Assembly: GCA_951406725.2 (NCBI GenBank)
Contig: OX597829.1
Span: 3,906,001-3,970,000 of the forward strand
Reading direction: 5' to 3'
Length of the DNA: 64,000 bases
Source: Octopus vulgaris
Lineage: Eukaryota
Position numbers and translations under genes: made by a program. The notes below the pieces were generated by a model, which saw only the letters and a list, made by a program, of their open reading frames with translations, was not told the DNA's origin and searched no databases. How positions within the stretch are numbered: the first letter of the stretch is position 1; every line of letters begins with the position of its first letter. Below, piece by piece: positions 142-60,868 of this stretch.

Positions 142-180
142 GTATATATATGTATGTATGTATGTATTTATATATATATA

Positions 181-215
<35 letters not shown>

Positions 216-242
216 GTATATATATGTATGTATGTATGTATG

Positions 243-43020: not shown

Positions 43021-43249
43021 ATTTCTTTACTGCACACCAGGGGCTAAACTTAGAGGAGACAAACAAGGACAGACAAAGGGATTAAGTCGATTACATCGAC
43101 TCCAGTGCGTAACTGGTATAATTTATCGATCCCGAAAGGATGAAAGGCAAAGTCGACCTCGGCGGAATTTAAACTCGGAACGTAACGACGAGCGAAATAC
43201 CGCTAAGCATTTCGCCCGGCGTGCTACCGTTTCTGCCAGCTCGCCGCCT
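43021..43249 (-). mobile_element. SINE family A
   Basis: Reverse complement of the family A consensus, ending tcgccgcc. Confidence 0.88.
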
Positions 43250-43575
43250 ACGGTAGTGTTAGCTTCTGTTGATGTAAAAACCATGAGAGCAATGTGAAAA
43301 TGCACCTTAAGATTTAGTCACACAATAAATATAAGGTGTACTGGGAAGGAACCGACGAATTCTATTCGATTAGATCACAAGCTGTGACAAAAGAACTTTG
43401 TCAAACCAATATAACTAATTAGTAATCAAATTGATTAATTTTATAAAACTGAAGCGAAATACCAAAAGGCTTTTTCAAGTGAATGTATGGTCTTTCCAGA
43501 ATCCCTTAAAATTCATAACAAACTTCTGTTTTAGAAAATCACTATTTTTAAATCTCACAACAAGAGATATTCAAC

Positions 43576-43826
43576 AACAGTGCTTTGGAGTAAAGATTGT
43601 TTGCCAACATAACATGGCAGTCCTGGTTTAGGACGAATGTTGTTGTAATTTAGCCACAGGAGTCTAGGGTTGCTAGATTCCCTTATTCGAAAATGTAAGG
43701 ACACAGATCGTGTCATATAGCCAGCTGGAGACGATGTCTCCTGGGGCTAAATTACAGCAACGTTCATCCTAAACCAGGACTGCCATGTTATGTGTTGGCA
43801 AACAATCTTTACTCCAAAGTTCTGTT
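43576..43826. mobile_element. Element with an inverted duplication (about 87-bp arms) around a structured core related to the HHR element at 60027
   Basis: 43576-43662 is the reverse complement of 43738-43826. 43663-43755 aligns with 60069-60180. Confidence 0.75.
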
Positions 43827-43969
43827 TGTTGGGAGTTTACTGACAAAACACTGTTCTTGCTTCTCTTTCTTTAATTACTATACTTGGAAAACATTGAGCA
43901 GCATTAACATAAAGTTTGAAAACTAATATATCATTTAAATAATAATGCCTAATTTCACTAAATTTTATT

Positions 43970-44044
43970 TTAACTATTTTTTTCTTCTTTTTTTACAGGT
44001 AAGTGATACGAATTATTTCCGAAATTGTCTATTGGAAGGTAAGT
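43970..44044 (+). other. Candidate recursive splice site (3'ss abutting 5'ss) with a 40-nt RS-exon/microexon
   Basis: Long polypyrimidine tract, then tacag|GTAAGT (AG at 43997-43998), 40 nt, and gaag|GTAAGT (44039-44044). ctaat/cactaaa branch-like motifs lie upstream. Confidence 0.6.
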
Positions 44045-44584
44045 GTTTGTGTTTTATTTAAATATAATATTGTTCCGTTGAAGTCGGACATATAAGGTTG
44101 TCTCCATTATCGTTATTATATTTGGAGTTGTTTACTGTAAGATTAAGATAATTCTATGTCTGCCATCTTATCAATAGAGCGACACTTAATACGCTTGTTG
44201 TGCTTGGCTCTTGCTAATGAACAACTCATCCAGCTTCGTTTTGTCGTAAATAAATAAAATCCGAGACTATAACAACATTTATGTTTCCATTTCGTTATTT
44301 TACGAAAACAGAATAAATAAAATAAAGTAAAAAATTAAAAAAGAGACAAACTAAAGGAAAATTCTTGGCATTTATCCACTAAATCGTTTCTTTTTCTCTT
44401 ATTCTTTATTCGTGAAATGATTTTAAAAATAAGTAATTCATTACTTTTTCAGCTATGCTGTATTTAAATTTTAACATACAATTTTCCTTCACTTTGTCAT
44501 GATTCCACTTTATCGCTGTTTGCATTTCGGTTCCGTTTCCTTCTCTCTTTCTTTTTTCTTTTCTTTTTTTTCTTGCTTTTCTTT

Positions 44585-45457: not shown

Positions 45458-46274
45458 TCATATCTATTTCAATAAGTAATTGCTTAGATTTCATTTGTAT
45501 TTTTGGTTATTAATATCGTAAGAATCTCCCTCGCTTTATACGATTTCAATTTACATGGCAACTACTAACATCATCTGCTGTGGAAACCGAGGGTTAATTG
45601 AATTTCTCATTTTTGAATCATTTTTCTTTTACAGCAGCTTATTGAACATTAATATGTCTTGAATGAATGAATAAAATATTTTCAGACCTTGTTTATTTTC
45701 ATACTTTCTCGAAACGTAGACCATAATTATCTAAAATACTCGGCAAACCTGTTAACGCTGTTTTTAGGTGAAATGCTTGGTCATAATTGCATGTTTGCCG
45801 GGTGAAATATTGTGCTCTGTTATAGTTATTACTTAAATAAACCTTGAGTAACGATAGCGAGAAAGAAATTAATGCTGTGTTGCTTAGTGTTTCAAAGATG
45901 ACTGCTTCGCTGATACAGTAAGAAGTTCTAAGCTTAGGTTTATGTATTAAACGCACAATATTCCTGGTCAAAGGCGGGAATCTTAGCGCCAGTCGGTGGA
46001 CATTTTGTATGGATTGTCCTTGGACCGGAAACTGTCTGGATGTTTGCAACAGAGTAGCCTCTGTTAAAAAATGTCCGGGAATTTATTGAGGAAGAGTAGT
46101 TATTTGGATTGATCCCAGTACAACTCATTTTCTTTCTTACTTTAAACTCACCTTGAGAAACAGACCAATAATCAGTCCCTTCTAACTTCTATGTTTTATG
46201 CTCTTATTTTAATTTTTTTTTTAACAATTACCATTTTCCACTTTTCTTCATTTCTACCTTTAGTTATGATTTTT

Positions 46275-46460
46275 ACGTAATCCTTGCTCTTGGTACAATC
46301 TCATGATGTTCCCATGTAGTGCTTGATTTTCATACAACCCCATGATGTTCCCACGTGGCCCTTGGTCTTCGTACAACCGCATGAATTTTCCACATGATCC
46401 TTGATCTTCAAACAACCCGAAGATGTCCCCATATGGTCTTTGGTTTTCGTTCAATCCCAT
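46275..46460 (-). repeat. 39-bp tandem repeat (about 5 units), in frame in an ORF giving a 13-aa repeat
   Basis: GDIFGLFEDQGSC/GKFMRLYEDQGPR/GNIMGLYENQALH/GNIMRLYQEQGLR in ORF 46260-46562. Confidence 0.85.
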
Positions 46461-47011
46461 TGCTGTATTCGCGAAAGAGCTTCTTGGACTATCCTGCCAG
46501 CCTATCGCATGGTTCATAAATTCCAGGTGATTAATCTGGAGTTCCTTCTTCAGGTCAAACATCGCTTTGGTTCTTTCCTGAGAACGGCTTTGACCAGTGA
46601 CTAACGTATACGTCTCGCTTTCTATTCTTGTTTCTTTAGCAAGAAAGGTCTAAACGCCGATGAATTGCTCCTACAACCCTCTACTCTAAATTTGGGGATG
46701 AAATTTGTATTAATAGTTGTTTACTTTAACATGCTCACAAACAATCAGTAGCTGCCAGTCTTTGTGACTTTAGGGAAGAACTCCTGCAATACATAGGAAT
46801 CTTGCTATATTATTAGTATGAAACGGCGAGGTTTACTACGGCTAGAAATTTTAATCTGGTTCCCTATATTTTATTCCGGTTATCTCTTAGTGAGGCTTGC
46901 AATATTACCATTGTCAACCAAATCTTCAAATTATACCCTAGCATATTATCAGATAATGAAGACGTCGTCAGTTACACAAAATGGATTGTCTTTGATTGTA
47001 GGCTCCCTCAA

Positions 47012-59860: not shown

Positions 59861-60026
59861 CTACGTACTTACCTGATCTACATAATCGATTATCTGTAAA
59901 TTGGTTCTAAACTTCCTGTTTACAAAAAAAAGAAGATTAAGATGGAAATTTGCTCTCAATCAATACTCCGTTTATTTATTTATTTTTTTTATTTTTCACT
60001 TCATTTATTTATTTCACTATATTGTT

Positions 60027-60075
60027 ACCCTGGACTGATGACGGGCAAGACCCAGAAACATGCATGTCTTCGGGT
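60027..60075 (+). ncRNA. Type-I hammerhead ribozyme with palindromic stem III
   Basis: ACCCtGGA-CTGATGA-cGGG(caaga)CCCa-GAA-ACATGCATGT-C-TTCGGGT: intact CUGAUGA and GAAA core, GUC triplet at 60066-60068, perfect palindrome ACATGCATGT. Confidence 0.78.
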
Positions 60076-60868
60076 GCTAATCCTAGCTGGTGGGGGTGCT
60101 TGCCTCCCCTTCGCAAATATAAGGACACAGGAAATGTGTCAAAGCCGACAGGAAGCGTCGATGCTTCCTAGGGCTAAATAGCGGTGGTGTAATTCCCTTT
60201 ACGGCACACTCACGTTATGTTGACAGTATACAACCACTCTATCGCTCCACCACCACTCATGTCTCTTTGAGACATTTACAAATTCAATATTTCTAATTCA
60301 TTTATATCGATTTATCGATATGACTGTGTGTGTGTGTGTGTGGCATGTATGTGATCAAGACAGCTGAAACTTTGCAAATCTTTACTCTGAATTGGTTTCT
60401 AATTGTTTGCTTGTGAGAGCGAGAAAGAAAAGGAGGTGAGTGTGTCTTGTCGGGCGCTGCTCAAGCTAAAGAAAAAAATTCCGGTGTAGACGTCCCTTGA
60501 CGAATGTGAGAATGTTTAGGTAGAAAGCAACACATCATCCAATCGTTATTGGCTGCAGAGGATTTCTTGGGAGTGGTACGAGGTGATGGTTATAGTCGCT
60601 GGGTTTGACTCATTAGGAAACAAATATCGCCATGAAAGATAACCGAGCCACAAAATTCGGTTAAAATGTGATGAGGAAAAGAGGGCAGATTGTGGTATGC
60701 GTCTCAAATAGAGCTGTTAAATTGAGGACCTGGAACGAGACTCATGCTCTCTTGATAACCTCATAAGTCTGCTAATGTCCGATATGTGGAGTTTTGAATT
60801 GGTAGCATTTGCAACTTCAAATTGCTTCCAAATTACACAGACACCCCCCACACACACACATACCTACC

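Follow-up and report, generated by a model that had tools for sequence, protein, structure and literature searches.

Non-LTR retrozymes of animals are described as short, low-GC tandem units without a reading frame (about 350-390 bp in mussels), in which each unit carries a type I hammerhead with a short palindromic stem III and is predicted to form a highly self-paired circle, and which occur in thousands of candidate copies; circular RNA and self-cleavage have been demonstrated for them, and the sections of that report used here name Penelope only as a strong candidate for their mobilisation (PMC7229834). Hammerheads have been reported in the repeats of Penelope-like elements (PMC4209133), and an origin of animal retrozymes from such repeats has already been published, as the work on vertebrate retrozymes, found as monomers, dimers and multimers, concluded a Penelope-derived origin from co-occurrence and repeat homology in 35 genomes of vertebrates, insects and coral (bioRxiv 10.64898/2026.07.22.740005).

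Penelope-like elements are described as insertions with a head-to-head 5'-truncated inverted arm, duplications of 8-13 bp, and AT-rich or microsatellite targets (PMC11167929, PMC8557442, PMC3846280), and the tail of their pseudo-LTR architecture is often on one end only (PMC8557442; PMC3846280). For the Poseidon element of Anolis, the enzyme in vitro used two internal start sites 3' of the hammerhead, extended both target strands and required a region lying just 3' of the hammerhead, while the ribozyme cut was dispensable; none of the RNA reads reported there had an end at the cut, and the enzyme acted mainly on uncut RNA (PMC11167929). The movement of retrozymes and the origin of inverted one-tailed Penelope insertions are presented in the respective reports as open questions (PMC7229834; PMC8557442).

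Here we analysed a window of 64,000 nucleotides of the Octopus vulgaris genome (contig OX597829.1), in which two loci belong to a hammerhead repeat family of about 350-360 nt tandem units. The family is very probably a non-coding non-LTR retrozyme that travels as a passenger, relying on a Penelope-like element for reverse transcriptase and endonuclease. No literature was found on octopus hammerhead repeats or on counts of short and long arms; supplements and repeat libraries could hold these families. The main text of one octopus repeat paper does not contain the word 'ribozyme', and its repeat library could likewise hold them (PMC13282606).

Results

Two subfamilies of one tandem hammerhead unit

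The preliminary description of the window had claimed that the sequence from 43,663 aligns with the sequence behind a predicted hammerhead cut at 60,068, and this homology held. The local alignment of 43,663-43,755 with the sequence behind 60,068 scored 85.5, compared with 30.2 +/- 5.0 for shuffled sequences (0 of 2,000 dinucleotide shuffles reached the score), and BLAST aligned the two copies with 74% identity over 72 nt (E 1.4e-4). No third homologous site near this score was found in the window. The hammerhead with its predicted GUC cut was also present in the sequence as described (Table 1); Rfam returned no match at gathering score for the whole window, and none up to E 5 at 59,900-60,400.

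The whole genome (2.8 Gb, 227 contigs) was searched for relatives. DNA searches gave 1,370, 2,305 and 2,724 first-look candidates for subfamilies A, B and C, respectively, with 40 scored each, and a pattern search gave 456 matches, most of the first 100 listed belonging to subfamily D, with none in the reversed control. Pattern searches also yielded further lineages beyond A-D, again with zero matches for the reversed patterns. The tandem periods were 350, 353, 360 and 360 nt in A, B, C and D, within the 150-400 nt that characterise units of non-LTR retrozymes. Three hammerhead cores lie 350 nt apart in one A locus (L005), the B unit spans 349-353 nt, and arrays of 3 to 10 units were found, those of the young subfamily D, with copies 97-100% identical, reaching up to 10 units. 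A and B were colinear across the whole unit, with 231 of 338 aligned letters identical (68%), and identity in all six pairs among A-D was 57-68%. The copies at 43,663 and 60,068 are thus two subfamilies, A and B, of one tandem unit of about 350 nt with a predicted type I hammerhead.

The hammerhead core and stems I-III were present in A-D, stem I (CTGTG/CACAG in subfamily A) being double-changed at all four predicted pairs. Core variants occurred in C and D (seen at L151 1520-1565, L159 1415-1460, L240 and L243 1300-1345): subfamily C has a U3/A8 swap, like the coding family of locus L127, and a C residue at core position 4 was shared by D, one further lineage and a coding family. The units, with a GC content of 0.38-0.46, had neither a protein-coding frame nor an LTR, PBS or PPT layout (PBS and PPT judged by eye), and the predicted unit circles folded at z -5.0 to -5.9 (60 shuffles per circle). 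The sequence 5' of the hammerhead belonged to the preceding unit and not to a reading frame, and the reverse transcriptase plus GIY-YIG frame of autonomous Penelope-like elements was absent from this family, which is not an autonomous element. Assembled contigs of three runs presumed to be RNA and one unlabelled run covered the unit, ends, strand and circles not being readable from such contigs. Judged by sequence, the family carries every testable feature of non-LTR retrozymes, self-cleavage being a prediction.

Layout of the insertion at 43,519-43,827

The insertion around 43,663 consists of two 5'-truncated arms of subfamily A placed head to head (Table 1), the upstream one being the inverted copy that had been noticed earlier. 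That it was retrotransposed is supported by the 13-bp target duplication on its flanks.

Table 1. Features of the two copies in the window; unit positions are numbered from the predicted hammerhead cut.
Feature	Position	Strand	Remarks
Left target-site duplication	43519..43531	+	13 bp, 1 mismatch vs right copy
Inverted arm, subfamily A	43532..43662	-	Unit positions +97 to +225; outer end is the distal 'tailed' 3' site
Junction filler between two 5'-truncated arms	43663..43664		4 nt, or 2 nt should the two letters that follow be templated as they are in locus L002
Forward arm, subfamily A	43665..43814	+	Unit positions about +24 to +174; ends at proximal 3' site; without hammerhead
Predicted hairpin GACAC/GTGTC of conserved module	43700..43714	+	Helix 1: 97% of cells paired, 3/5 pairs double-changed
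Predicted two-tier hairpin	43719..43748	+	Outer AGCC/GGCT, inner GGAGAC/GTCTCC; helices 2 and 3: 92% paired each; 4/5 inner pairs double-changed
Predicted hairpin TGCCA/TGGCA (helix 5)	43781..43801	+	About 14 nt upstream of proximal 3' end
Right target-site duplication	43815..43827	+	13 bp, pairs with 43519..43531
Type I hammerhead motif, subfamily B	60027..60075	+	Predicted GUC cut between 60068 and 60069; palindromic stem III
Solo subfamily B copy	60027..60297	+	Unit positions -42 to about +229; 5'-truncated upstream of hammerhead; distal 3' end
Hairpin module, subfamily B version	60124..60175	+	Sequence, alignment to A, lineage covariation

The forward copy had been described as starting within about 2 nt of the ribozyme cut. 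Its 5' start was instead located at +24 to +26 after the predicted cut of its own subfamily. The word GGGTGCT is present twice in the 60,068 copy, at 60,072 and at 60,094, and the copy was misread as cut-ended because it had been aligned to the wrong one; the optimal alignment places its start on the second word, with a shift of 22 nt relative to 60,072. The proposed pairing of TCTAGGGT with ACCCTGGA is possible on paper, with seven Watson-Crick pairs and one G.U pair as read from the sequence. The earlier reading of the locus as a reverse-transcribed insertion of a ribozyme-cut RNA is therefore retained in its first half, but not in the cut 5' end.

5' ends are scattered around the predicted cut

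The ends were surveyed in 120 loci (108 unique) that represent the best-scoring few dozen of thousands of candidates, including 60 fetched with 3'-part queries against bias, with locus L045 as the reference for B numbering. The pile-up of 5' ends immediately after GUC that had been expected was not observed: starts within -2..+3 were seen for 7 of 107 A segments and 1 of 71 B segments, and the remaining starts in A and B ranged from -922 to +299, the kind of dispersion that had been named beforehand as contrary evidence. As the 5' starts are scattered, with 8 of 178 at the cut, the predicted hammerhead cut does not set the 5' end of the insertions, nor does it do so in the 43,663 copy. Within the range -60..+25, 8 of 68 pooled starts fell at the cut when 4.7 were expected (p 0.10); the values were 7/45 for A alone (p 0.035, uncorrected), 3/20 for A in the unbiased set (p 0.16) and 0/7 for the in-range ends of C and D. 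A few copies started exactly at +1 (L064, L116), and a minority of copies with cut-ended templates is possible. Locus L064 (1447-2054) contains two opposed A segments, both starting exactly at +1 and with related flanks, possibly one cut-ended insertion that was later duplicated.

3' ends fall at two fixed positions

The 3' ends formed two clusters, at +165..185 or +212..238, which took in 163 of 178 segments (96/107 in A, 67/71 in B). The corresponding ends lay at about +175 and +235 in C and at +178 and +222 in D. The 3'-part queries end near +170 to +178, so that shorter 3' ends are under-sampled; a matching two-site pattern came from the second cluster and from partner arms, for which there had been no selection. 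A coding GIY-YIG Penelope-like family of the same genome had two end sites, separated by about 30 nt, which accounted for 8 of 9 ends. The two fixed ends (about +174 and about +225) are the Penelope 'tail' signature, in line with the two internal start sites of the anole enzyme (PMC11167929).

Duplications of at least 8 bp, mostly 11-14 bp, flanked 39 of the 62 inverted insertions of A and B, four of these duplications being (TA)n runs, whereas 20 mismatched controls gave 0-4. At the 3' end, an adjoining (TA)n or (CT)n run was seen in 1 of 96 cases in A, 22 of 67 in B, 19 of 23 in C and all 13 in D. This difference in target choice between subfamilies may reflect different partner endonucleases.

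Paired arms carry the same source variant

An adjacent inverted arm was found at 44 of 58 A loci and 17 of 50 B loci. A total of 81 head-to-head pairs in A-D was compared, after merging the duplicate L181 and the split L175/L179 and excluding L161 and L172 as truncated or rearranged. Both ends were clustered in 68 pairs, among which 63 combined a short-ended with a long-ended arm (p 3e-14), four were short+short and one was long+long. The arms overlapped or abutted at 56 of the 81 junctions, and 22 junctions carried 1-15 extra bases.

Sharing of sequence variants was higher within loci than between loci in A (38 pairs, p 0.006), B (15 pairs, p 0.0005) and C (7 pairs, p 0.004), and the 8 pairs of D had 3 differences in 1,282 sites within loci vs 129 in 8,879 between them (exact p 0.0003). 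In 35 of 63 pairs it was the short-ended arm that had the greater 5' reach, demonstrating that it is not a fold-back copy of the long-ended one. The two arms represent the same source variant, copied as two separate cDNAs. The shared variants, together with the presence of one end at each site, point to two primings on one RNA source; we infer that both arms came from one RNA molecule on which the enzyme acted as a dimer. The variants might also be shared through a single source locus active at a time, or through conversion between the arms.

A separate case of inverted structure was seen at L264 (690-3027), where a 928-nt inverted duplication with 99% identity contains an inverted retrozyme insertion of another lineage.

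A covarying hairpin module lies downstream of the hammerhead

Covariation was evaluated in 13 related lineage representatives, each single-copy, in a sequence-only alignment with five helices drawn from the A and B folds. Over these lineages 86% of cells were paired and 12 of the 24 pairs were double-changed, which was reached by none of 500 shuffles, the slid controls giving at most 5 pairs. Helix 4 was weak (64% of cells paired). RNAalifold applied to 20 copies of A-D independently returned hammerhead stems I and II and the downstream hairpins, with 15 of 29 pairs double-changed. These models support covariation of the hairpins across lineages, in agreement with the conserved multi-hairpin module proposed at the outset, including the compensatory change in the inner hairpin (GGAGAC/GTCTCC vs GGAAGC/GCTTCC), which was present and supported across the 13 representatives. 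Among the stems said to be kept in both copies, GACAC/GTGTC and AGCC/GGCT were present and likewise supported, but CCTT/AAGG was rejected, as 235 of 500 shuffles paired equally well and one of its G residues also belongs to the GACAC stem. In the context of the unit, the CCTT/AAGG stretch was predicted in all of A-D to pair with -60..-87, in a rod prolonging stem I.

The module is likely to serve as a recognition signal for the reverse transcriptase, a role suggested by its position, which matches the region that the anole enzyme needs. The preliminary description had seen in it no described family; the element that carries it is of a described kind, a non-LTR retrozyme or non-autonomous Penelope-like element.

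Search for a coding partner

Penelope-type reverse transcriptase frames linked to the module, which had been suggested as something to look for, were not found. In a GIY-YIG search that favours one clade, 150 of 6,136 candidates were scored and 50 of 148 matches (30 + 20 loci) were examined; none of these 50 loci held a coding element sharing the module, and the matches there were separate retrozyme insertions nearby. The 212 further loci examined with a Penelope protein profile contained no linked Penelope frame, only neighbouring or interrupted remnants. At L117 (1252-1626) a B copy is joined head-to-head to a GIY-YIG fragment. It was rejected as a partner and is regarded as an insertion into an older Penelope-like remnant, because the GIY-YIG frame resumes on the other flank (judged by eye). 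The retrozyme matches beside coding elements in L139/L151, L243 and L257 were also separate insertions.

One coding Penelope-like family (L127, L132 and others) has many open frames of 781 aa, near-identical copies and (TA)n ends, and is likely to have been active recently; its repeat is without the module. For a 597-aa piece of L127, the homologues listed were only close relatives with 52-70% identity, and no solved structure was found.

Discussion

The results can be accommodated in a scheme in which the tandem arrays would be transcribed and the hammerhead would cut the multimers to unit length, permitting circles to form, the cut leaving the insertion ends unset. A Penelope-like enzyme would bind the hairpins immediately downstream of the hammerhead and nick both target strands about 12-13 bp apart. 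Each of the two internal sites, proximal and distal, on the same RNA source would then give rise to one cDNA; both cDNAs would stop at random and be joined via short overlaps or a few filler bases. The insertion at 43,519-43,827 would be one product of such a two-priming route.

A return to the preliminary reading, in which reverse transcription of the 43,663 copy ran to the 5' end of a hammerhead-cut RNA, takes its strongest form as a template jump from subfamily A RNA to the cut end of a subfamily B RNA. The first letters of the copy do resemble the +1 start of one B variant (L104), and the exact +1 copies mentioned above show that such ends occur. However, the closest other A copy (L002, the top non-self match among 40 scored) matches from 43,665 at +24, leaving only two letters to be accounted for, the 5' ends of the family are dispersed, and the uncut anole RNA, without reads at the cut, is a working substrate (PMC11167929), which together leave this reading hardly credible. 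An equally slight probability is given to a LINE-dependent, SINE-like passenger or to a DNA element of the foldback type. LINE-type priming is also compatible with target duplications and 5' truncation, as foldback elements are with inverted repeats, but subfamily A shows no poly(A) or simple-repeat tail at its 3' ends, these ends are internal to the tandem unit at two fixed positions, and the outer ends of the inverted arms are unequal and fixed. Somewhat better placed, though still very improbable, is the view that there is no independent passenger and that an autonomous Penelope-like element left these copies behind as solo terminal repeats or 5'-truncated stubs. Their end structure matches that of autonomous elements, and vertebrate retrozymes derive from such repeats (bioRxiv 10.64898/2026.07.22.740005); against this stand the previous unit found upstream of the hammerhead in place of a frame, the multi-unit arrays and the 212 loci without a linked reading frame.

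The rival with the most weight, which we nevertheless consider unlikely, concerns the inversion step only and leaves the family assignment untouched: the inverted arms could result from self-priming or fold-back of one cDNA, or from an antisense template, in place of two primings. Such an origin has been proposed for Penelope elements of rotifers (PMC3846280), the arms do share variants, and some junctions are symmetric (L163, L165). On the other hand, neither arm contains the other, as seen from the 5' reach of the short-ended arms, and extension of both strands was obtained in vitro with the anole enzyme (PMC11167929). Two primings thus remain our preferred account of the inversion. Its fullest version reads the insertions as genomic traces of a mechanism that uses two sites on a single template, with a dimer of the Penelope enzyme, one retrozyme RNA held by its hairpin domain and the target nicks primed at two internal sites, and has in our estimate an even chance of being correct. 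If it is, two-site priming would explain why only one arm of inverted Penelope insertions has a tail, the covariation map of 13 lineages would offer a first model of how the RNA signal is structured, and differences in target choice between subfamilies would mark switches of the partner enzyme.

The octopus family resembles the animal non-LTR retrozymes in unit size, low GC, hammerhead type, predicted circle and candidate copy number, circular RNA and self-cleavage being demonstrated for the latter and predicted for the former; its insertion ends carry the Penelope signature directly, where Penelope had been named as a candidate (PMC7229834). With Poseidon and the pseudo-LTR/tail architecture it shares two internal 3' ends past the hammerhead and the one-arm tail (PMC11167929; PMC8557442, PMC3846280), and with Penelope-like elements in general the inverted arm, the length of the duplications and the type of target (PMC11167929, PMC8557442, PMC3846280). 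It differs from them in the absence of the RT/GIY-YIG frame, in a hammerhead of canonical and not minimal size, and in a tail of about 45-60 nt as opposed to 30-40 nt; the two ends are found 174 and about 225 nt beyond the cut, whereas the first site of the Anolis element lies at 85-92 nt (PMC11167929). It is like the vertebrate retrozymes in the Penelope connection and in multimeric units, and where that work used co-occurrence and repeat homology, the present one uses insertion ends, arm pairing and downstream structure (bioRxiv 10.64898/2026.07.22.740005).

The family belongs to a known kind of element, and its evidence speaks against hammerhead cutting as what defines insertion ends. The end signatures tie a retrozyme to the Penelope route, and the near-obligate short+long rule together with the shared variants makes the two-priming model directly testable. 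The compact covarying candidate RNA signal comes with a young subfamily, D, that is suited to in vitro work. The one-ended tail was already known; the shared variants between arms and the 5' reach of the short arm are added here.

Other features of the window were observed near the insertion. The region 43,040-43,250 is a dispersed repeat that recurs in many of the fetched loci and that we take to resemble an octopus SINE. On the plus strand at 43,980-44,045, a pyrimidine tract is followed by AG, about 40 nt and GTAAGT, possibly a small exon, and the insertion at 43,519-43,827 would therefore be intronic. The minus strand at 46,260-46,649 contains an open frame of 129 residues with about five 13-residue repeats (39-nt tandem).
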